Positions 131-35,902 of a DNA stretch of 64,000 nucleotides are shown here, in pieces. The DNA comes from Bacteroidota bacterium (lineage in GTDB: Bacteria; Bacteroidota; Ignavibacteria; UBA10030), in assembly GCA_040901865.1 (NCBI GenBank), contig JBBDYD010000194.1, positions 2,761-66,760 of the forward strand, in the 5' to 3' direction. The position numbers and the translations under genes are program-made. Position 1 is the first letter of the stretch. Every line of letters starts with the position of its first letter. The notes beneath the pieces were generated by a model that was not told where the DNA came from, did no database searches, and saw only the letters and a program-made list of their open reading frames with translations.

Positions 131-481
131 ATGCCACGCTCTCAAAACAAGGTAGCATCGCATCGCCGGCGGAAGAAGATTCTTGAGCAGGCGAAGGGGT
201 ATTGGGGTGGACGAAGCAAGGTCTACACCATCGCAAAGAACCACGTCGAAAAGGCATTGACCCATGCTTATCGGCACCGGAAGACGAAGAAACGAGAATA
301 TCGCGGACTGTGGATTACCCGCATCAATGCCGCGGCACGGCTGAACGGAACGACATATTCCCGCCTTATGACCGGTTTGGATAAGAAGCAAGTCATGATT
401 AACAGGAAAGTGCTTGCCGACCTTGCCGTGAACCATCCGACCGCCTTTTCGGAAGTTGTAAAGTTCGCTTCCGCTTCCTGA
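131..481 (+). CDS. rplT: 50S ribosomal protein L20
   Basis: 116 aa, [30 protein letters not shown]...; typical L20 N-terminus and length. Confidence 0.97.
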
Positions 482-4795: not shown

Positions 4796-4980
4796 AATCA
4801 AGACTATTAAAGAACCTTACAAGTAACTTTAATAGGGAGCTTGACTCATAAGCGCAGAGCGCATGCCACGCGTATCCCAGCGACGACCCCGACATCGTCG
4901 GGCGAGCGGGAGTGGAAGTGTGAAGTGCTTAGGCAGGCACCCACCGTGTTTGAAGAGAGGTTCTTCGAATACAATTGATT
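4796..4980 (+). ncRNA. Candidate structured sRNA, 6S-RNA-like (about 185 nt)
   Basis: Lies in the 315-bp non-coding gap between zapA and rny. An imperfect closing helix joins 4796-4817 (aatcaa..tatt..aagaacct) and 4958-4980 (aggttctt..aata..ttgatt), as 6+4+8 bp. A large internal loop follows (31 nt / 26 nt). An inner helix pairs taagcgc (4849-4855) with gtgctta (4925-4931). An apical hairpin pairs cgacga with tcgtcg (4881-4900). In E. coli ssrS lies directly downstream of zapA. Confidence 0.35.
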
Positions 4981-6599: not shown

Positions 6600-7233
6600 G
6601 AAGTACCGCACCAGGCGATTCTCACCAGACAACCTTTGTTCAGTCGGCATAACAGGTGGGATCGGGAGCGGTAAAAGTACCGTATGCCGCCTCCTCGAAG
6701 AACAGGGATATCCCGTCCTCTCCGCAGACCCGCTTGCCATTGAAATCGAAGAAACGGACCCGGTCGTCATCACAAGAATCAAAGCATTGCTGGGCAGCGA
6801 GGCCTATGATTCCAAGGGATCCCTGAACCGTTCATACGTCGCCGGACGCATCTTCTCCAGCAGGGGTCTTCAGAAATCAATCGAGGCCGTTGTTCATCCT
6901 GCAGTGTTCCGTGAATTGCGACGAAGAGCCGCGGACCTCTCAAAAGCCGGCGAGCCCCTGGTTGTAATCGAAGCCGCTCTGATTTTTGAGTCTGGCATGC
7001 ACGAGGCTCTCGATTTCGTGGTGGTGGTGGATGCCGAGGAGGTCATTCGGATTGCTCGCGTGATGGACCGTGACGGCATTTCTGCCGCTGAAGTGCGAAA
7101 ACGCATGACCGCTCAATGGCCAATGGAGCGGAAAATACGGCTTGCCGATTTCGTGATCGGCAATAACGGAAGCAGGGAAGAACTCCAACAGCGGGTTCAA
7201 CTTCTCACGACCATGATCGACCAGTTCGTTTAA
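6583..7233 (+). CDS. coaE: Dephospho-CoA kinase
   Basis: P-loop GITGGIGSGKST and a CoaE-like body. The true start may be a few codons downstream, because the tracked ORF overlaps the rny end. Confidence 0.9.
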   Translation: MPMPSKKYRTRRFSPDNLCSVGITGGIGSGKSTVCRLLEEQGYPVLSADPLAIEIEETDPVVITRIKALLGSEAYDSKGSLNRSYVAGRIFSSRGLQKSIEAVVHPAVFRELRRRAADLSKAGEPLVVIEAALIFESGMHEALDFVVVVDAEEVIRIARVMDRDGISAAEVRKRMTAQWPMERKIRLADFVIGNNGSREELQQRVQLLTTMIDQFV

Positions 7234-29853: not shown

Positions 29854-29892
29854 AAGGAAAGCGGATTGTCTGAGAGAATCCGCCCCGATGGT

Positions 29893-29978
29893 GGAGAGAA
29901 GAGGATTCCCCGTTTCACAAATAAATCGAAGAAGTAGTCCCTTATCGGATCAACCTCTGGGCGGGAGAACCCACGGTA
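29893..29978 (-). pseudogene. Decayed tRNA-Ser T-arm fragment with T-loop hairpin insertion (copy A0)
   Basis: ggagagaagaggattc (29893-29908) resembles the tRNA 3' acceptor/T-stem ggagagggtgggattc. A 58-nt insert follows (29909-29966), ending tccctt...ggga and homologous to the A' insert. Then comes gaacccacggta (29967-29978), identical to the tRNA. Confidence 0.55.
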
Positions 29979-30020: not shown

Positions 30021-30086
<66 letters not shown>

Positions 30087-30108
<22 letters not shown>

Positions 30109-30365
30109 GGGTTGATGATGCCTTTGGCCCGAAGCCAAAGGTTGCCAGCTAATGATTTGAAGAATCTTTCTCTTGCCGTTGCTTCTCTCTTGGTGTTGAA
30201 CGCCTCCCAATAGTGGAGGACGTAGGGACTGTGGCCTTTTGTGTAGTGTCCTCGCCCAGCATTATGTGCCGCCAGCCTTGCATGAAGGTCAGCGCAATGC
30301 CCGTAATAATACGTTCCGTCCCGTAAACTGCGAAGAATATAGGTGTAAAACATCCCCCCAAACAT
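30087..30365 (-). CDS. Small GIY-YIG nuclease family protein (UPF0213/YhbQ-like)
   Basis: 92 aa; FYTYILRSLRDGTYYYGHCADLHARLAAHNAG...TKGHSPYVLHYWEAFNTKREATARERFFKS fits the GIY-(10-11)-YYG...R...E...N pattern. The last 7 codons and the TGA stop (30087-30089) lie inside the tRNA-Ser gene. Confidence 0.85.
30089..30272. repeat. 184-bp direct repeat, copy 1 (tRNA 5' part + GIY-YIG 3' half)
   Basis: Matches 30565-30748 at a constant offset of 476 bp with 4 mismatches. Confidence 0.9.
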
Positions 30366-30384: not shown

Positions 30385-30584
30385 GAGGGTGGGATTCTCC
30401 CTTTCAGAGATTATTCAGAGAAGGGATCCCTTCCTCGTGAATCCCCTTGAACGGGAGAACCCACGGTACCCTTACGGGCACACACGCTTTCCAGGCGTGG
30501 CAGTTCCCCCGAGCGCTGGAATTACCATTGAGGGGTCCCTTCATTGGTCCATCACAGAAAGGGAAACCACTCCTGCACCTCTCC
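30385..30584 (-). pseudogene. tRNA-Ser(GGA) paralog interrupted by hairpin insertions in T-loop and D-loop (copy A')
   Basis: All non-insert bases are identical to 30026-30108. A 59-nt insert sits at 30398-30456, between C and G of the T-loop TTC|GAA. An insert of about 58 nt sits at 30507-30564 in the D-loop (GGTT|GAAC). The last 4 nt of the 3' acceptor strand are replaced (cactt instead of cggag), so only 4 acceptor pairs remain. Confidence 0.8.
30387..30432. repeat. 46-bp exact direct repeat, copy 1 (T-stem + first T-loop hairpin)
   Basis: gggtgggattctccctttcagagattattcagagaagggatccctt is identical to 35700-35745. Confidence 0.9.
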
Positions 30585-30748
30585 GGGTTGATGATGCCTT
30601 TGGCCCGAAGCCAAAGGTTGCCAGCTAATGATTTGAAGAATCTTTCTCTTGCCGTTGCTTCTCTCTTGGTGTCGAACGCCTCCCAATAGTGGAGGACGTA
30701 GGGACTATGGCCTTTTGTATAGCGTCCTCGCCCAGCATTATGTGCCGC
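30585..30748 (-). pseudogene. Duplicated 3' fragment of the GIY-YIG gene
   Basis: 30565-30748 repeats 30089-30272 with 4 mismatches in 184 bp. It covers the last ~55 codons (AAHNAGRG..GIINPERCRS). It has no N-terminal half and no start codon. Confidence 0.8.
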
Positions 30749-30835
30749 TGGCAGTTTCCCTGAGCGCTGGAATTACCATTGTGGGGTCTCTTCATTGGTC
30801 CATCACAGAAAGGGAAACCACTCCTGAACCTCTGC
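30749..30835 (-). pseudogene. tRNA-Ser 5' (acceptor/D-arm) fragment with D-loop hairpin insertion (copy A'')
   Basis: tggcagtt, then a 59-nt insert (30757-30815; 4 mismatches to the A' D-loop insert), then aaccactcctgaacctctgc. It is fused directly to the GIY-YIG fragment at 30748/30749. Confidence 0.75.
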
Positions 30836-30966
30836 GTGTTTAAAATTACGCGCTTCCTTGTGTACTCGCGCAAGCGGCAAAAGATACCGAAAGAATGGTG
30901 CAAAATCAACGAACTGTTGGTATTGACGGGAACTTTTTGCATCTTCAACAACAATGCAGTCCGCAG

Positions 30967-31347
30967 ATGAATGAAACAATATTAGTTGCCGAAGATCAAC
31001 CGCACATTCGGGCATTGATTCAGTACAAACTGCGGAACAGCGGCTACCATGTTATTGCCGTCGAAGACGGTGCCGCCGCCCTGCAACAGGCGACGGAGTT
31101 GTTGCCTGACCTGATTCTCCTCGATGTGATGATGCCTCTGATGACGGGTTTTGAAGTACTCGCAGCTTTGAAGGAGAACGAGCAAACAAAAGGAATTCCT
31201 GTTTTGCTGGTGACGGCGCAGAGCAGCGAGGAGGAAGTTCTGAAGGGTCTTGAAATGGGTGCTGATGATTACGTCACCAAACCATTTAGTCCCAATGAAC
31301 TTGCCGCACGTGTGAAAACCGTCCTCTTGAGAAGAAAAAAGAAATAG
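30967..31347 (+). CDS. Single-domain response regulator (CheY-like receiver)
   Basis: MNETILVAEDQPHIR..., the DLILLDVMMP phospho-acceptor Asp context and a conserved Lys (YVTKPF). The start is set to the ATG at 30967. Confidence 0.9.
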   Translation: MNETILVAEDQPHIRALIQYKLRNSGYHVIAVEDGAAALQQATELLPDLILLDVMMPLMTGFEVLAALKENEQTKGIPVLLVTAQSSEEEVLKGLEMGADDYVTKPFSPNELAARVKTVLLRRKKK

Positions 31348-31353
31348 AGAATC

Positions 31354-32694
31354 ATGAGAATCAACGCCGGAATTGTTGCTGCCGTCGTCTTCTCCTCCTG
31401 TTGTGTCTGGCTTTCAGCATTTTCCCAGTCCGTTCCTCCTGAGGATCCCGATTCTGTGTTTGTCAGAGCCCTTCGGCTCCAGCGGGCAGGCAAGCTGGAT
31501 GTGGCGAAGCAGGAGTTTTTGCTTCTGCTACGCCGGTTTCCGGAGTATCATGACGCCCGCGTGCAATACGGGTTTCTCCTCGCGTGGGAGGAGCGATACC
31601 AAGCGGCCCTTCTTCAGTTCGATTCAGTGCTTTTTGTCCAGCCCTCTCATGTCGAGGCGCGGTTTGGAAAGTCCCAAACGCTGGCATGGTTGGGACGTTA
31701 CCGCCAATCGGTTGATATCATCCTCGCTCTTATTCAGGAATATCCTCAATCTGTCCGATTCCTTTCTGAAGCCGGTCATGTCTACCTGAGGGGCGGAGCT
31801 CCGAGAAAGGCTCTCGAGTATTACGAAAAGGCCTATATCAGACTCCCGAACGACAAGGATGTCATGCGGGATCTTGCACGGGTCCACAGAACTCTCGGAA
31901 ATAAGGATTTGGCTCTTTATTGGTATCGGAAACTTCTTGCAGCTTCACCGGGAAACGATGAGGCGAGAGCGGAGGTTCTTCGATTAACGTATGAAGCAGA
32001 TCACGAGATCCAACTGACCTCCGCGTATGAGTCCTTTACCACAGAAGGAATCCGTCAGCACACACTTCTTCAGGCAGAGTATTTCTATGCATTGGACAAG
32101 AATTGGAAGCCGTTTCTCCATTTCAGCATTGTATCGAAATTCTCGGAGCGCGAAAGCAGGTTTGGCGGCGGGTTCTATGCCATTCTCACGAATTCGATGA
32201 GTTCCTTCGTCCAGATCATTGTGTCGCCAAACGCAAATGTGGTACCGAGCCTTGATGTCACAGCGGAACTGAATGCTGGGATCGTTCGGTCTGTTGACCT
32301 CATTGGCGGCTTCCGTGTCCTTCAGTTCGATTCTGTGAATGTGAGCATCCTCATGCCCGGGTTGACCTGGTATATTGAAGATGAAGTCTGGATTACCACC
32401 AGAGGCTACTTCGGCCTTATTCCAAATCAAACAACCTCAAGCACGGCTGCCATCACGCTTTCCTTCAGGCCGACCCCCCTCACCACGATGCGCATCGGCG
32501 GTTTTTCGGGCAATGAAATCCTGCGGGCAACCACCATCGGTGAATTGTCGTCGATCCGGTCTTCAGGAGCGTTTTTGGAAATCAAGTCACGTCTCGATCC
32601 GCACTTCTCAATCGATGCGCAGTACCTGTATACAAACAGGAACTCTCCTTCGCATTCGCACCTCATGACGGTCACGGTCTCCGTATTGTTCTGA
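31354..32694 (+). CDS. TPR-repeat outer-membrane protein (PgaA/YaiO-like beta-barrel C-terminus)
   Basis: Signal peptide, then N-terminal TPR-like repeats (ARFGKSQTLAWLGRYRQS, ALEYYEKAY, DLALYWYRKLL). The C-terminal ~220 aa show alternating hydrophobicity and end in an aromatic residue (VSVLF), as beta-barrels do. Confidence 0.65.
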   Translation: MRINAGIVAAVVFSSCCVWLSAFSQSVPPEDPDSVFVRALRLQRAGKLDVAKQEFLLLLRRFPEYHDARVQYGFLLAWEERYQAALLQFDSVLFVQPSHVEARFGKSQTLAWLGRYRQSVDIILALIQEYPQSVRFLSEAGHVYLRGGAPRKALEYYEKAYIRLPNDKDVMRDLARVHRTLGNKDLALYWYRKLLAASPGNDEARAEVLRLTYEADHEIQLTSAYESFTTEGIRQHTLLQAEYFYALDKNWKPFLHFSIVSKFSERESRFGGGFYAILTNSMSSFVQIIVSPNANVVPSLDVTAELNAGIVRSVDLIGGFRVLQFDSVNVSILMPGLTWYIEDEVWITTRGYFGLIPNQTTSSTAAITLSFRPTPLTTMRIGGFSGNEILRATTIGELSSIRSSGAFLEIKSRLDPHFSIDAQYLYTNRNSPSHSHLMTVTVSVLF

Positions 32695-32704
32695 AAGTCG
32701 AATC

Positions 32705-33838
32705 ATGCGGATAGAATTCCTCATTGCCGCTGCACTTGCCGTCGGCGCAACATTCTTCGTAGTTATTGTCGCAATCGGCCTCTTTATCAACAAGCTAGTC
32801 GAAGTACGGCAGACACGAAACCGTGAAAAACTGTATCAATTGTACTCGGGAATGTTTGCCGACTTGTTGATGCAGCCGGTGGAGGCAATGTCGGGGAATC
32901 AAAGCCGCGGATCAGTTCTCGACCAATACGAAGATTTGATCGCGCCCGTAAAGAACGGATTGGAATGGTCCACCCCGGCCAGGAAAAAGCTCCACAGGGG
33001 AGTCATTCGGAGGATCCTCATTGATTTTGCGAATGATTTGGCAGGCGACTCAATGGATCGGTTGCTGTATTTCTTCTATTCCCTGGAATTCGTTAAGGAC
33101 GAACTGGAGTTGCTTCAGAGCAACAAGTGGTGGGTGAGGGCCCGGGCGGCCCGGGACCTGGGCTTACTCCGGGCGAAAAAGGCAACTACAGCGCTGACAA
33201 TCGCATTGGAAGATGAACATCCCGATGTCAGAAACGAGGCAATGCAATCTCTTATTAAACTCGTAGGCGTGGTGGCGCTGGGGACAATCCTGAAGTCCGC
33301 CAAGAACATCTCACAATGGACTTCTCTGGAGCTCTCGCTGATTGTCAAGGAGTCTGAGGAGGAAGCGTTTCCATACCTCGTCCAGGCGCTGGGGTATTCT
33401 GATCAATCCGTTGTTCTGTTTACCATTGAAATGCTTGCGGAGACCGGCTTTGTGACGGCGGTCGCGCCCCTGATGCAGGTGGTCAAGACGTATCCGAATG
33501 TTCTTGTGCGCGCAAAGGCAGCCGAGGCGTTGGGTCGGCTGGGAGACCAGCGGGCCGAAACACTCCTTCATGAACTTTTGAAAAATCCGTACCCGCAGCT
33601 CCGCGCGAGTGCGACGAGGGCGCTTGAACGCATCGGATCTCCCGACTCTACCCCGCTCCTCCTGGAGCGTATGCAATCCGGACCAGTGGCGGAGAGATTG
33701 TCAGCCGCACGGGCGATGGCGCGATCTGGGGAATCGGGATTGCAGAAGTTACGAGAGGCAGCCGAGGGTACAGATACACTTCAGAATGGGATTGCGCTCC
33801 ATGTGCTCGAAGAGGTCGAAGGCGTGGAGGTCCCGTGA
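32705..33838 (+). CDS. Membrane-anchored HEAT-repeat protein
   Basis: N-terminal TM helix followed by repeated (D/H)PxVRxxAAxALGxLG-type HEAT/PBS-lyase repeats (WWVRARAARDLG, HPDVRNEAMQSL, NVLVRAKAAEALGRLG, YPQLRASATRALERIG). Confidence 0.75.
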   Translation: MRIEFLIAAALAVGATFFVVIVAIGLFINKLVEVRQTRNREKLYQLYSGMFADLLMQPVEAMSGNQSRGSVLDQYEDLIAPVKNGLEWSTPARKKLHRGVIRRILIDFANDLAGDSMDRLLYFFYSLEFVKDELELLQSNKWWVRARAARDLGLLRAKKATTALTIALEDEHPDVRNEAMQSLIKLVGVVALGTILKSAKNISQWTSLELSLIVKESEEEAFPYLVQALGYSDQSVVLFTIEMLAETGFVTAVAPLMQVVKTYPNVLVRAKAAEALGRLGDQRAETLLHELLKNPYPQLRASATRALERIGSPDSTPLLLERMQSGPVAERLSAARAMARSGESGLQKLREAAEGTDTLQNGIALHVLEEVEGVEVP

Positions 33839-35256
33839 GTACCGTTCTCGAATTCTTTCTGGAATCCTACATATATTTCGTGACGGTCTACTTTATCCTC
33901 GTAAACGCGACGTACACCTTTCTCCTTATCCGGTCGTTCAAGGAAATCCAGTACTACATGAGGCACAATGAGTTTAGCAACTATCGCATCATCGTACAGT
34001 CCGAACTGACACCGGCCGTTTCCGTGCTGGCCCCGGCCTACAATGAGGAAGCAACCGTCGTCGAGAGCACCCGCAGTCTTTTAAAGCTCAGCTATGGAAA
34101 GTATGAGGTGATCGTGATAAACGACGGGTCGTCAGACGGCACACTGGAAACGCTGAAGAAGGAATTTCACCTGCATCCTTCAAAGCAATTGTATGTCCCT
34201 GTCCTGGAGACGGCGCCGGTGCGCGGAATCTACCGGTCTTCCAGGCCGGAGTACCGCAATCTTATGATTATTGACAAAGAGAATGGGGGGAAGGCGGACG
34301 CGCTGAACGTGGGGATCAATGCCGCAAAACATGATTTCGTGTGCTCAATTGATGCCGACTCGCTCCTTGAAGACGAAGCCCTCTTGCGCGTCATGAAGCC
34401 ATTCCTGGAGGATGAGACTGTCATCGCAGCGGGGGGGATCGTGCGAATCGCAAACGGTTGCACGGTCGTTAACGGTCGCGTGATCGACGTTGCTTTGTCG
34501 CGCAAGCTGCTGCCCGTGTTCCAGGTTGTGGAGTACTTCAGGGCGTTTCTCTCGGGAAGAATGGCGTGGCACGGAATGAACGGGCTTTTGATCATCTCAG
34601 GTGCTTTTGGAATGTTCAAACGGTCTGCCATGATCGAAGCAAACGGGTACGACCGGACAACGGTTGGGGAGGATATGGAACTGGTCACCCGGCTCCACAA
34701 GATCAAACGAGAGAGGAAGGAGCCTTACAAAATCGCTTTTGTGCCTGACCCGGTGTGCTGGACACAAGCGCCTGAGTCCTTGGCCATTCTTGCGCGGCAA
34801 CGAAACCGCTGGCATCGCGGATTGCTGGATACGATGCTCCGCCACCGGAGGATGCTCTTCAACGGTCGCTATGGGATCATCGGATTTGGAGCCATGCCGT
34901 ATTTTGTGTTTGTAGAGCTGTTAGGTCCGGTTATCGAGTTCCTGGGATACATTGCCCTCATTGTGATGTACGCGGCGGGCGTTCTTGATGTCAGGATGGC
35001 CATCCTCTTTTTCGTTGTCTCCTTGTTTTATGGAGTCATGTTCTCCGTTGGCGCTGTATTGCTTGAAGAAGTCTCTTTTCAACGATATCCGCGCCCCCGG
35101 GACCTGGCAATGCTTCTGTCGTTCGGTGTGATCGAAAATTTCGGCTATCGTCAGCTGACGATTCTCTGGCGCGTGAAAGCCTTCTGGGATTACTTCGTGC
35201 GAGGTGAGCGACGCTGGGGGGCGATGCAACGGAAAGGGTTTGCGGCGTCCGGCTGA
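33835..35256 (+). CDS. Processive family-2 glycosyltransferase (PgaC/IcaA/BcsA-like synthase)
   Basis: VSVLAPAYNEE, INDGSSDGT, SIDADS, VGEDMELV and the Q(R)xRW motif ARQRNRWHRG. TM helices lie at both ends. It has no PilZ domain. Confidence 0.9.
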   Translation: MSTVLEFFLESYIYFVTVYFILVNATYTFLLIRSFKEIQYYMRHNEFSNYRIIVQSELTPAVSVLAPAYNEEATVVESTRSLLKLSYGKYEVIVINDGSSDGTLETLKKEFHLHPSKQLYVPVLETAPVRGIYRSSRPEYRNLMIIDKENGGKADALNVGINAAKHDFVCSIDADSLLEDEALLRVMKPFLEDETVIAAGGIVRIANGCTVVNGRVIDVALSRKLLPVFQVVEYFRAFLSGRMAWHGMNGLLIISGAFGMFKRSAMIEANGYDRTTVGEDMELVTRLHKIKRERKEPYKIAFVPDPVCWTQAPESLAILARQRNRWHRGLLDTMLRHRRMLFNGRYGIIGFGAMPYFVFVELLGPVIEFLGYIALIVMYAAGVLDVRMAILFFVVSLFYGVMFSVGAVLLEEVSFQRYPRPRDLAMLLSFGVIENFGYRQLTILWRVKAFWDYFVRGERRWGAMQRKGFAASG

Positions 35257-35257
35257 T

Positions 35258-35532
35258 TCATTGGACCATTCCGTACTTTTTTCCCTGTTCCGTCATTCGA
35301 AGAAAATACCTGAGGCGCTGTTGGAAAACTTCCGGACGTCTCTTTGCTCCATCAATCCATCCAATACGTACTCGCTGATAGGGGCGGGAAAAGTTTTTGA
35401 AATTTCGCCATGCCCGGGGACTTTCTTCCTGTAATAGATGAGCCAGATTTCCGAGGCAGTGCTGTGGTTTTTTTTCAACCACGCGCGCCATGCTCCTCGG
35501 GTGGAGACGTAGAGCGTTTTTGTGATTTCCAT
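35258..35532 (-). pseudogene. YdeI/OmpD-associated-family gene remnant, frameshifted and truncated
   Basis: One frame gives MEITKTLYVSTRGAWRAWLKKNHSTASEIWLIYYRKK, the family N-terminus. The conserved GWIDG motif (RVRIGWIDGAKRR) appears in a different frame about 30 codons later. The total is about 90 codons against about 190 for the family. Confidence 0.5.
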
Positions 35533-35544
35533 ACCTGAGTGAAG

Positions 35545-35631
35545 CGGAAGGGGTGGGATTCGAACCCACGGTAGCCCGGAGGCCACTCCGGTTTTCGAGA
35601 CCGGCCGATTCAACCACTCTCGCACCCTTCC
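35545..35631 (-). tRNA. tRNA-Ser (anticodon CGA), type II
   Basis: Hand-folded. Acceptor GGAAGGG/CCCTTCC; D stem CGA/TCG; anticodon stem CCGGT/ACCGG with loop CTCGAAA; long variable arm GTGGCCTCCGGGCTAC; T arm GTGGG-TTCGAAT-CCCAC; discriminator G. Confidence 0.93.
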
Positions 35632-35698
35632 GTGATTACTTGTGAAAGACTCTAATTCTCAGGAAGCTGCTTTGTCACCTTCATTTGACCTACATGTT

Positions 35699-35902
35699 GG
35701 GGTGGGATTCTCCCTTTCAGAGATTATTCAGAGAAGGGATCCCTTGCATGATTACTCTTCGGAAGGGAGAACCCACGGGTAGCCCGGAGGCCACTCCGGT
35801 TTTTGCCGACGGCATCCCTTCGGGACGAGACCAGTCCGATTGTCCCTCGCATGAGCATTATCAAGTGAGGGATCCTTTGGGAAACCACTCTCGCAACTTT
35901 CC
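35699..35902 (-). pseudogene. tRNA-Ser(CGA) paralog interrupted in T-loop, anticodon loop and D-loop (copy B')
   Basis: Collinear with 35545-35631, with three inserts. One is 58 nt at 35711-35768 (T-loop, same TTC|GAA position). One is 22 nt at 35804-35825, inside the anticodon between G35 and A36. One is about 41 nt at 35842-35882 (D-loop). Several point changes are also present, and both acceptor strands are degraded. Confidence 0.8.
35700..35745. repeat. 46-bp exact direct repeat, copy 2
   Basis: Identical to 30387-30432. Confidence 0.9.

Follow-up and report, generated by a model that had tools for sequence, protein, structure and literature searches.

Ghost copies of tRNA-Ser genes, plugged with hairpin-like inserts, accompany a small GIY-YIG nuclease gene in an Ignavibacteria genome

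The window analyzed here (the whole stretch of 64,000 nucleotides (nt) from contig JBBDYD010000194.1 of an Ignavibacteria genome) carries two intact tRNA-Ser genes, and beside each of them lies a collinear copy of the same gene whose cloverleaf loops are split open by short inserts of the form TCCC...GGGA. What are these copies, and what put the inserts into their loops? The observation is real and can be explained in outline: the interrupted sequences are ghost tRNA copies of a GIY-YIG nuclease-plus-hairpin cassette. The account that we favor on balance is that the two functional tRNA-Ser genes have been colonized by a small selfish or domesticated nuclease-hairpin cassette, of which four interrupted sequences in the window (A', B', C', and D'; Table 1) are ghost duplicates. 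To judge from their sequence, these four are non-functional flanks of the cassette and not alternative tRNAs, and the sole gene of the cassette is predicted to encode a single-domain GIY-YIG nuclease of 80-90 amino acids (aa).

All tRNAs, copies, and inserts in the window are read in the tRNA sense on the minus strand. ARAGORN and Rfam called only the two intact tRNA-Ser genes in the window; A' and B' were not called, even at a relaxed E-value, and in both of them the final 5-6 nt of the acceptor strand are missing. An earlier note, made from the sequence alone, had described A' as a base-for-base copy of tRNA-Ser(GGA) apart from two loop inserts and a replaced 3' end. Its coordinates, the complete identity, and the insert lengths stand, but the replaced end comprises the final 5 nt of the 88-nt ARAGORN call, not 4 nt. 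The T-loop, D-loop, and anticodon inserts that the same note assigned to B' were confirmed by alignment; outside them, B' differs from tRNA-Ser(CGA) by three substitutions and two single-base insertions. Also real is the stretch of 46 identical nt shared by A' and B' (30387-30432 and 35700-35745). The palindromic junction at which adjoining units meet, AAGGGATCCCTT, is present in two exact copies in the window, far above chance: when up to one mismatch is allowed there are three matches against 0.19 expected, and none of 100 shuffles reaches three. Within the 64-kb window, every clear TCCC...GGGA unit (29-30 nt) belongs to a tRNA-derived copy. The units had been described as able to fold into hairpins, and in the window these hairpins are weak: pairing is limited to the outer 4-6 bp, and the A' D-loop insert folds at the level of its shuffles (z = -0.10). 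The two T-loop units are ~74% complementary to each other, and jointly form one long imperfect palindrome centered on GGGA/TCCC (here and below, a slash within a motif marks the junction or insertion point).

Four further features extend what had been noticed at this locus: C', D', a full nuclease gene, and a truncated second nuclease copy. C' has the same D-loop insert as A' (92% identity), and breaks off after the D-stem, where it is joined to the truncated nuclease gene. D' lies ~40 nt downstream of intact tRNA-Ser(GGA), in the position where relatives have T-arm fragments with hairpins downstream of tRNAs; a 58-nt two-unit insert (29909-29966), different from the A' T-loop insert, splits the T-loop of D' at TTC/GAA.

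Table 1. tRNA-Ser genes, interrupted copies, and nuclease genes in the window, with the evidence for each (L037 and L071 are loci in other genomes; the T-star arm is defined in the text).
Feature	Position	Strand	Evidence
Intact tRNA-Ser(GGA)	30021..30108	-	ARAGORN; Rfam tRNA 52.7 bits
Intact tRNA-Ser(CGA)	35544..35631	-	ARAGORN; Rfam 56.9 bits
Single-domain GIY-YIG nuclease gene	30087..30365	-	Pfam PF01541, E 1.2e-13
Truncated second nuclease copy (3' 164 nt), 98% identical to full copy	30585..30748	-	Repeat family 30089-30272 vs 30565-30748; HMM (hidden Markov model) match
A': tRNA-Ser(GGA) positions 1-83 plus two inserts, without 3' acceptor end	30385..30584	-	83/83 identity, inserts removed; same arrangement in L037, L071
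A' T-loop insert, 59 nt, at TTC/GAA; units of 30 + 29 nt meeting at GGGA/TCCC	30398..30456	-	T-star-arm covariance model 39.5 bits; homologous to well-paired L037 hairpins
A' D-loop insert, 58 nt, at GGTT/GAAC; two 29-nt units (TCCCTT..AAGGGA, CCCC..GGGG)	30507..30564	-	Not in syntenic L037 hairpin-bearing tRNA copy
B': drifted copy of tRNA-Ser(CGA) lacking the 3' acceptor, 68 nt upstream of intact gene	35699..35902	-	Covariance-model match 43.8 bits
B' T-loop insert, 58 nt	35711..35768	-	
B' anticodon insert, 22 nt	35804..35825	-	
B' D-loop insert, 41 nt	35842..35882	-	
C': tRNA-Ser 5' fragment (5' acceptor strand + D-arm), D-loop insert 30758-30815	30749..30835	-	Repeat-family comparison, 92%
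D': tRNA-Ser 3' fragment (variable-arm end, T-arm, diverged 3' acceptor strand)	about 29890..29978	-	Repeat-family comparison

The nuclease gene sits between A' and intact tRNA-Ser(GGA), and the truncated copy between C' and A'; on the minus strand the order is C' - truncated nuclease gene - A' - nuclease gene - tRNA-Ser(GGA) - D'. From C' to the tRNA, this is the order that would be expected from tandem duplication of an A'-nuclease unit followed by an internal deletion. The likely start codon of the full gene is the ATG at 30353 (89 codons); an upstream ATG at 30365 would give 92 aa. The open reading frame (ORF) has no stop codon before tRNA-Ser(GGA), and runs 22 nt into it (30087-30108). 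PF01541 is the sole domain (residues 5-72 of 92), with no DNA-binding domain found using Pfam; homologs are 80-85 aa in length, and the Tyr, Arg, and Glu positions of the catalytic motif are invariant. Homologs of 80-81 aa end close to the tRNA, immediately before or after it. Several longer database entries (P0002-P0004, 146-150 aa) include translated tRNA sequence as a result of read-through or upstream extension (GGTTCGAATCCC becoming G-S-N-P). The window nuclease exactly matches an NCBI entry named 'MAG: GIY-YIG nuclease family protein [Bacteroidota bacterium]'; a separate exact-protein look-up for it returned no record. An 8-bp GC-rich hairpin, CCTTTGGC-CCGAA-GCCAAAGG, is present in the 3' coding part of the gene (30120-30141) and in the truncated copy (30596-30617). 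The earlier note had proposed a search for a mobilizing enzyme, for which the GIY-YIG nuclease between A' and the intact tRNA is the candidate; no integrase or transposase domain, including HUH Y1, was found with Pfam in the nine ORFs scanned around both loci.

The same association recurs in other genomes. A pattern scan of one genome per species for GGGTTC-TCCC...GGGA-GAATCCC identified 35 loci, against a rough chance estimate of ~8, and a related metagenome scan identified 21 more. Of the genome loci, ~20 were judged to be true T-arm inserts split at TTC/GAA; the other ~15, excluded from further comparison, are either matches by chance or instances of a different, actinobacterial repeat. (In Aeromicrobium, at L007, L013, L025, and L026, a different repeat, GGGTTCTCCCTTCTCGTGG..CCACGAGAAGGGAGAATCCC, is found on several contigs with no tRNA context.) Wherever the available sequence reaches far enough, the true inserts adjoin an intact gene for a tRNA (Ser, Pro, Met, His, Arg, or Gln) or for transfer-messenger RNA (tmRNA); overall, the tRNA identities affected are Ser, Pro, Glu, Met, His, Arg, and Gln, in addition to tmRNA. 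The hosts are Ignavibacteriota, Bacteroidota, Kryptoniota, Saganbacteria, and gammaproteobacterial metagenome-assembled genomes (MAGs). The pattern scan found none of these arms in viral contigs.

A further set of loci (L036, L037, L038, and L066-L071) was fetched by homologous protein alone, which makes it unbiased for hairpins, and all of these loci carry hairpin-bearing tRNA fragments beside the nuclease gene. In the recurring architecture, an intact tRNA and the nuclease gene are accompanied by a tRNA fragment on the same strand with one or two hairpins in its T-, anticodon-, or D-loop, usually of the form TCCC...GGGA; the nuclease gene is on the tRNA strand in every case. In the commonest layout, often found in tandem, the intact tRNA is followed by the nuclease ORF and then by CCGTGGGTTC, a long hairpin (TCCCTCA..TGAGGGA), a mini-hairpin (TCCCTTCGGGA), GAATCCC, and the 3' acceptor strand; the Ignavibacteria ORFs start 2-3 nt past the tRNA end. 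We refer to the interrupted arm, CCGTGGGTTC-hairpins-GAATCCCAC, as the T-star arm (e.g., L022, L037, and the window). The hairpins lie ~10-45 nt from the nuclease gene (window, L001, L022, L036-L038, and L066-L071), and at the boundary facing this gene a clamp that closes the fragment arm extends 7-14 nt past the hairpins.

Two cassette types can be distinguished. In the 5'-type, tRNA positions 1 to p, the hairpins, and positions p+1 to p+k precede the nuclease gene, which precedes the intact tRNA; in the 3'-type, the intact tRNA and the nuclease gene are followed by positions p-k to p, the hairpins, and position p+1 to the 3' end. The split position p is mostly in the T-loop (TTC/GAA), and in others in the anticodon loop or D-loop. 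Read against these types, A' with the nuclease gene and tRNA-Ser(GGA) forms a 5'-type unit with p in the T-loop; C' and the truncated nuclease gene appear to be a decayed tandem copy of the A'-nuclease unit; D' is a relic of a 3'-type unit, and B' a 5'-type relic that has lost its nuclease gene. Instead of the independent paralogs as which they had first been taken, A' and B' are thus seen to be 3'-truncated duplicates that form one end of a nuclease cassette. The window cassette is old and partly decayed: its hairpins have degenerated and its nuclease gene no longer has a stop codon.

The closest counterpart, L037, is syntenic with the window (a response regulator gene beside the hairpin-bearing tRNA-Ser(GGA) copy, the nuclease gene, and the tRNA); the T-loop hairpins of L037 are well paired and share homology with those of the window, and it has no D-loop insert, which indicates that the D-loop insert of A' was gained later, in a copy that was already dead. 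L071 has the same arrangement as the window at tRNA-Glu, L038 has the mirror arrangement, and syntenic L066 has nuclease cassettes between the tRNA and NfeD. Upstream of a tRNA-Ser(CGA) gene, L068 has two units that each comprise tRNA positions 1-34, two anticodon-loop hairpins, and GAAAACCGG, followed by a nuclease gene, and downstream of the same tRNA it has two units of a nuclease gene followed by a T-arm with hairpins. L068, L069, and L070 come from near-identical genomes and represent one tRNA-Ser(CGA) locus (L068 784-2129), at which there are four, two, and at least one nuclease genes, respectively. A D-loop 5'-type cassette is present in Saganbacteria (L003), and the tRNA-Ser(CGA) copies of L036 and L068 have D-loop/anticodon-loop hairpins at the B' positions. 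Conservation of the insertion points in relatives, which the earlier note had named as a test of its proposal, is seen in L037, L036, L068, and L003. In Kryptoniota Bin_123, the modules are homologous across Pro, Met, and Ser tRNA loci; homology at different tRNA loci of one genome indicates that the modules spread as sequence and are not made anew each time.

Several individual loci have features of their own. At the L068-L070 locus there are two nuclease subtypes, of 85 aa upstream and 81 aa downstream of the tRNA, and the 5' half of the L068 T-star stem (GTGGG) mismatches the local tRNA (GAGGG) and is of the type seen at Ser(GGA) loci. L027 (1017-1200, minus strand) contains a full-length tRNA-Glu-like sequence with an intact acceptor stem, in which a TCCCGAC..GTCGGGA hairpin replaces the anticodon loop and further hairpins are present in the T-loop; ARAGORN did not call it. 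In L010 (1996-2222), the intact tRNA-Pro(GGG) has the T-loop TTCAAAT, vs TTC..GAAT in the hairpin-bearing copy just upstream, which could reflect escape of the functional gene from a target site, or ordinary variation at position 57.

The hairpins themselves are conserved as structures. A covariance model built from eight T-star arms gave 39 aligned matches, 27 of them distinct, in an alignment fitted to the model. Paired cells make up 97.7% of this alignment, vs 86.4% in shuffles; two-sided changes affect 13 of 26 pairs, with 10 of these among the 14 pairs of the long hairpin (hairpin 1), and neither any of 500 shuffles nor any slid register approaches the observed covariation. As single-stranded DNA (ssDNA), the T-star arm would form a fully paired three-way junction (z = -5.9), whose helices are the T-stem with TTC:GAA, hairpin 1, and hairpin 2. 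Mismatches in the stems are not biased toward either strand (11 G.T vs 13 A.C), the hairpin loops are mostly 3 nt, and the units score on both strands with the covariance model. These three properties indicate DNA palindromes rather than RNA, and selection on a sense RNA would tolerate G.U alone, so that the comparable number of A.C mismatches speaks against RNA. The evidence points to a conserved, structured, DNA-level repeat family situated in tRNA-arm loops of many genomes.

These data also bear on a function at the RNA level, whereby the hairpins would stabilize the end of the nuclease mRNA after RNase P/RNase Z removes the tRNA, or would wreck the L-shape of the fragment so that tRNA-binding enzymes are not titrated. 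The nuclease gene and fragments are always on the tRNA strand, the Ignavibacteria start codon 2-3 nt past the tRNA 3' end suggests co-transcription, and A' as RNA folds better than its shuffles (z = -3.9). Nevertheless, we regard such a function as very improbable, given the balance of A.C and G.U mismatches, the predominance of 3-nt loops, the palindromic units that score on both strands, the lack of an Rfam family, and the decay of the window units while the flanking tRNA sequence has been kept identical. At gathering and relaxed thresholds, Rfam returned only the two tRNAs and an antisense-tRNA artifact (Plastid-psbl-rps4), and no family for the hairpins, which rules out a known RNA family. 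The suggestion of a tRNA-scaffolded structured RNA, one of three that the earlier note had offered, finds no support in view of these data (11 G.T vs 13 A.C, no Rfam match, decayed units) and of the missing acceptor stem.

It is also barely credible that the copies are functional tRNAs that contain introns or are split, or that they were left behind when an element was integrated by an integrase. Inserts in D-, anticodon-, and T-loops recall non-canonical archaeal tRNA introns, and D' resembles the displaced 3' tRNA end (attR) of an integrated element. However, A' and B' lack the 3' acceptor strand, such that excision of the inserts would still yield no tRNA; TTC and GAA both adjoin one and the same end of the helix formed by the insert, which gives a symmetric junction and no bulge-helix-bulge; and intact isoacceptor genes lie alongside. 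On these three counts, spliceable introns and split tRNAs are ruled out. With respect to integration, integrative elements reportedly duplicate the 3' part of a tRNA gene and have attachment (att) sites in the anticodon loop or T-loop, as Williams is said to have described in 2002. The present loci resemble such elements in the retention of an intact tRNA, in the displaced partial copy beyond the inserted DNA, and in junctions at symmetric loops. They differ in that no integrase domain was found in the nine neighboring ORFs scanned, that the cargo is one ~250-bp gene or nothing, that displaced 5' fragments are also present, and that hairpins interrupt the displaced arm; the repeats flank just this gene or a spacer of 35-140 nt, and D' is ~40 nt from the tRNA.

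The earlier note knew of no described bacterial system that resembles this one, which goes too far, as two systems are close precedents, Ssn (PMC11893778) and SegB (PMC13096335). Literature searches (GIY-YIG/YhbQ, UPF0213, tRNA adjacency, and T-loop palindromic elements) found no description of the arrangement itself. The Ssn enzymes are single-domain GIY-YIG proteins of about 94 aa, and their genes are flanked by 20-50-nt hairpin repeats (NTS/SRM) with the core ATTCCC-N8-GGGAAT; the enzymes bind the hairpin as ssDNA only, cutting a few nt upstream, and the hairpin-gene-hairpin layout has been likened to an insertion sequence (Chenal et al., 2025; PMC11893778). The roles of Ssn proteins outside Neisseria are stated there to be unknown, and the paper never mentions tRNA (PMC11893778). 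Both systems have a single-domain GIY-YIG protein of ~80-100 aa without a DNA-binding domain, a gene flanked by 20-50-nt GC-rich hairpins with arms that are pyrimidine- and then purine-rich (ATTCCC..GGGAAT in Ssn; TCCC..GGGA here), an insertion-sequence-like layout, and repeats that also occur away from the gene; a DNA-level structure is likewise indicated here. The differences are that the hairpins here sit in loops of tRNA fragments, which form direct repeats with the intact tRNA next to them, and that the hosts are FCB-group bacteria, Saganbacteria, and MAGs, as opposed to mainly Proteobacteria for Ssn. By analogy, the system in the window probably works like an Ssn/SRM pair.

Following this analogy, the favored cassette account would operate as follows. 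The hairpins would be the cognate ssDNA binding sites of the nuclease, as in Ssn/SRM pairs, and the nuclease would nick the DNA a few nt away from the base of the hairpin, at the position of the fragment boundaries (7-14 nt). Breaks beside tRNA-derived direct repeats would then lead to recombination, which would amplify the cassette in tandem, convert neighboring copies, and copy hairpins into further loops of dead copies. Homogenization by recombination would explain both the 46 nt shared by A' and B' and the complete identity of A' to tRNA-Ser(GGA), although L037 shows that the arrangement is old. tRNA genes are conserved and heavily transcribed, with the sense strand often single-stranded, and they fold into arms. 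They would be favored as sites because their arms fold in ssDNA and their sequences are conserved; insertions in the functional tRNA copy would be lethal, and would thus be tolerated by redundant ghosts alone.

Among other hairpin repeats, REP (repetitive extragenic palindromic)/BIME-RAYT and IS200/IS605 systems are similar in that short palindromes are read as ssDNA hairpins by a small associated nuclease, in that hairpins are paired, and in that a domesticated mobile element has been proposed. They differ in using a HUH Y1 transposase, as opposed to the GIY-YIG hydrolase here, and REPs are extragenic and genome-wide, and are not embedded in tRNA-arm loops. A REP-like element, or a miniature inverted-repeat transposable element (MITE), that inserts into single-stranded cloverleaf loops had been another of the three suggestions for the inserts; it came closest, since the modules are conserved DNA-level repeats in tRNA-arm loops, but it missed the nuclease cassette.

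Phages T4/T6 encode SegB, a GIY-YIG homing endonuclease of the free-standing kind whose gene lies in clusters of tRNA genes (PMC2330249, PMC13096335). This two-domain enzyme cuts inside tRNA genes with a preference for RAWTSGAAC, and drives recombination-dependent tandem amplification of the segB-plus-tRNA segment (Chihara et al., 2026; PMC13096335). By our own reading, RAWTSGAAC appears to match the antisense T-loop sequence GATTCGAAC. As with SegB, a GIY-YIG gene is found among tRNA genes in tandem arrays or with variable copy number (L066, L068-L070, and the truncated second copy in the window). SegB, in contrast, is a phage enzyme that acts on double-stranded DNA (dsDNA) and has a C-terminal DNA-binding domain as well as the GIY-YIG domain, vs the catalytic domain alone here; no hairpin modules or hairpin-interrupted tRNA fragments have been described for it; and the present genes are chromosomal, with the T-star pattern not found in viral contigs.

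The SegB comparison suggests another explanation, in which the hairpins are immunity plugs: a SegB-like nuclease would cut double-stranded T-loop-like motifs (TTCGAA, TCGAA, and TTGAA), and hairpins that split the motif would protect non-essential copies and spread by break-induced gene conversion from copies already plugged. The insertion points in A' and B' are relevant here, as five of five are at T[TC]/GAA-like sites (GTT/GAA, TTC/GAA, and CTCG/AAA). The anticodon loop of Ser(GGA), CTGGAAA, has no such site and no insert. Thus, local sequence, besides loop position, may guide insertion. Further in accordance with plugs, the L068 insert is at CTC/GAAAA, the L003 deletion begins exactly after TTC, the sequence after the anticodon-loop CTC in L036 is joined via a hairpin to a T-loop-type AATCCC, the SegB motif corresponds to T-loop sequence, and the identical 46 nt of A' and B' fit gene conversion. 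We nonetheless consider immunity plugs unlikely: the intact tRNA retains the motif and would be cut too, a plug requires neither a conserved covarying hairpin nor an arm-closing clamp, the nuclease has no DNA-binding domain, unlike homing GIY-YIG enzymes, and the D-loop inserts in L003 (CAG/TTTGG) and L065 are not at YGAA sites. As the whole cause of the restriction to loops, a T[TC]/GAA rule fits the window, L068, and L036, and fails for those same D-loop inserts; we retain it as a partial factor. Templated filler DNA was also considered as a source of the inserts, on the basis of a 12-mer common to a window D-loop unit and the L037 5' flank, and was rejected because this length is at chance level (E about 0.4, with many equal matches).

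A number of observations weigh against the cassette account. Some concern the nuclease. The hydrolytic enzyme cannot itself insert or join DNA, which leaves the first entry of a hairpin into a loop unexplained, as are the role and conservation of the arm-closing clamp; hairpin binding by the nuclease, its ssDNA specificity, and its cut site are carried over by analogy. The nuclease is at most a candidate member of the Ssn clade (cd10448). The SRM consensus, HGTCWYN(0-2)YYVSBRHN(0-5)WNVSBRGN(0-2)RNCYNB, has one match in the 441 kb of the window and loci, at the chance-hit locus L031, and none at the hairpin modules; as a positive control, four matches flank a Shinella plasmid gene (L076). The nearest solved relatives by sequence are the UPF0213 proteins 1ZG2 and 1YWL (E about 2e-7), and the family HMM scores an alphaproteobacterial (Sphingomonas) GIY-YIG protein without an SRM match at 44.5 bits vs 31.8 for the SRM-flanked Shinella protein. 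Alignment to the latter with hhalign gave a probability of 95% and 28% identity. In a profile protein search, the best 120 of 3088 matches are close FCB-group relatives, and no named Ssn protein is among the matches listed; matches to TIGR01453 (group I intron endonuclease) reach 16-19 bits vs a cut-off of 56, and phage matches to the nuclease protein are weak and unannotated.

Other observations of this kind concern the hairpins: the loci were gathered by pattern or by protein, and do not represent a genome-wide census of hairpins. T-arm fragments with hairpins are found in Kryptoniota at loci that lack a nuclease gene within 8 kb, and L049 has hairpin doublets at two intergenic, non-tRNA sites (4800-4821 and 6951-6972), one of them within the loop of a larger TCCCTCT..AGAGGGA hairpin. 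These two findings would suit an independent hairpin MITE/REP that targets ssDNA hairpin loops and is mobilized by another enzyme or the host, with the nuclease cassette merely making the redundant tRNA copies that tolerate it. The gain of the D-loop insert in a dead copy to which no nuclease gene moved (L037 vs the window) is also compatible with this proposal. We give it rather little credence, however, as all protein-led nuclease loci have hairpins directly adjacent, 7-14 nt from the gene-facing fragment boundary; the scanned neighboring ORFs contain no transposase or integrase domain; and the Ssn analog pairs such a protein with such a repeat. Immunity plugs, an independent repeat, and an RNA-level function are not mutually exclusive with the cassette account.

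The inserts had been reported to fall in loops only, and this holds in the window. Elsewhere it does not: in L064 (~350-445, minus strand), two tRNA-Ser fragments carry hairpins (GACCGAC..GTCGGTC) in their 3' acceptor strand, breakpoints of the duplications lie in stems, and the L049 doublets are intergenic. The non-tRNA doublets and the acceptor-strand hairpins together show that the preference is for arm or hairpin loops, and not strictly for tRNA loops. A', B', and the L037 copy end at the same position as that of the L064 insertions. The L049 doublet (TCCCGAAGGGA+TGCCTTTGGCA) resembles the B' anticodon insert.

The surroundings of the two tRNA-Ser genes in the window are as follows. tRNA-Ser(CGA) and tRNA-Ser(GGA) are ~5.4 kb apart in the window, vs 20-220 nt in most relatives. 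Between them on the plus strand (30895-35256) is an opposite-strand operon, accompanied by an OmdA relic; the operon genes encode a response regulator, a TPR/YaiO beta-barrel protein, a HEAT-repeat protein, and a family-2 glycosyltransferase resembling a polysaccharide synthase. The response-regulator junction is common to the window and L037. Downstream of tRNA-Ser(CGA), at 35258-35625 on the minus strand, are two overlapping ORFs in different frames, one of which matches OmdA/YdeI (Pfam PF13376); the pair is probably a frameshifted pseudogene. Overall, the nine neighboring ORFs match the NfeD, SPFH, response-regulator, TPR/YaiO, HEAT, family-2 glycosyltransferase, OmdA, and Fur families (Pfam).

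A broader proposal, which we advance only tentatively, is that these cassettes represent a class of tRNA-gene parasites. Each would consist of a minimal Ssn-like ssDNA nuclease and hairpin-capped tRNA half-arms, and would enter the cloverleaf loops of ssDNA tRNA genes, supplying a replacement tRNA segment such that the host gene stays intact and shedding the displaced halves outward as hairpin-plugged fossils. Ser, Pro, Glu, Met, His, Arg, Gln, and tmRNA genes would be the targets of such a parasite, across at least five lineages of bacteria. If true, this would give Ssn-type nucleases a natural role outside Neisseria, and would represent a new targeting logic, namely structure-specific insertion into tRNA arms.

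Among small GIY-YIG nucleases that are paired with hairpin repeats, experiments have been confined to the Ssn proteins. The loci described here provide a nuclease-hairpin pair with consistent genomic behavior: location at tRNA genes, bracketing by tRNA fragments with hairpins in their loops, and tandem expansion and contraction between near-identical genomes. They also provide a concrete candidate substrate, the T-star-arm three-way junction, for a nuclease with many representatives in Bacteroidota and Ignavibacteriota. In these phyla, tRNA loci are littered with tRNA pseudo-copies and with small genes annotated as 'GIY-YIG nuclease family protein', for which the cassette offers an explanation. 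The ghost copies can mislead tRNA annotation, as well as genomic-island predictors that use tRNA fragments as att sites. In the biology of these bacteria, the cassette may be a chromosomal counterpart of the SegB-driven amplification of phage tRNA genes.

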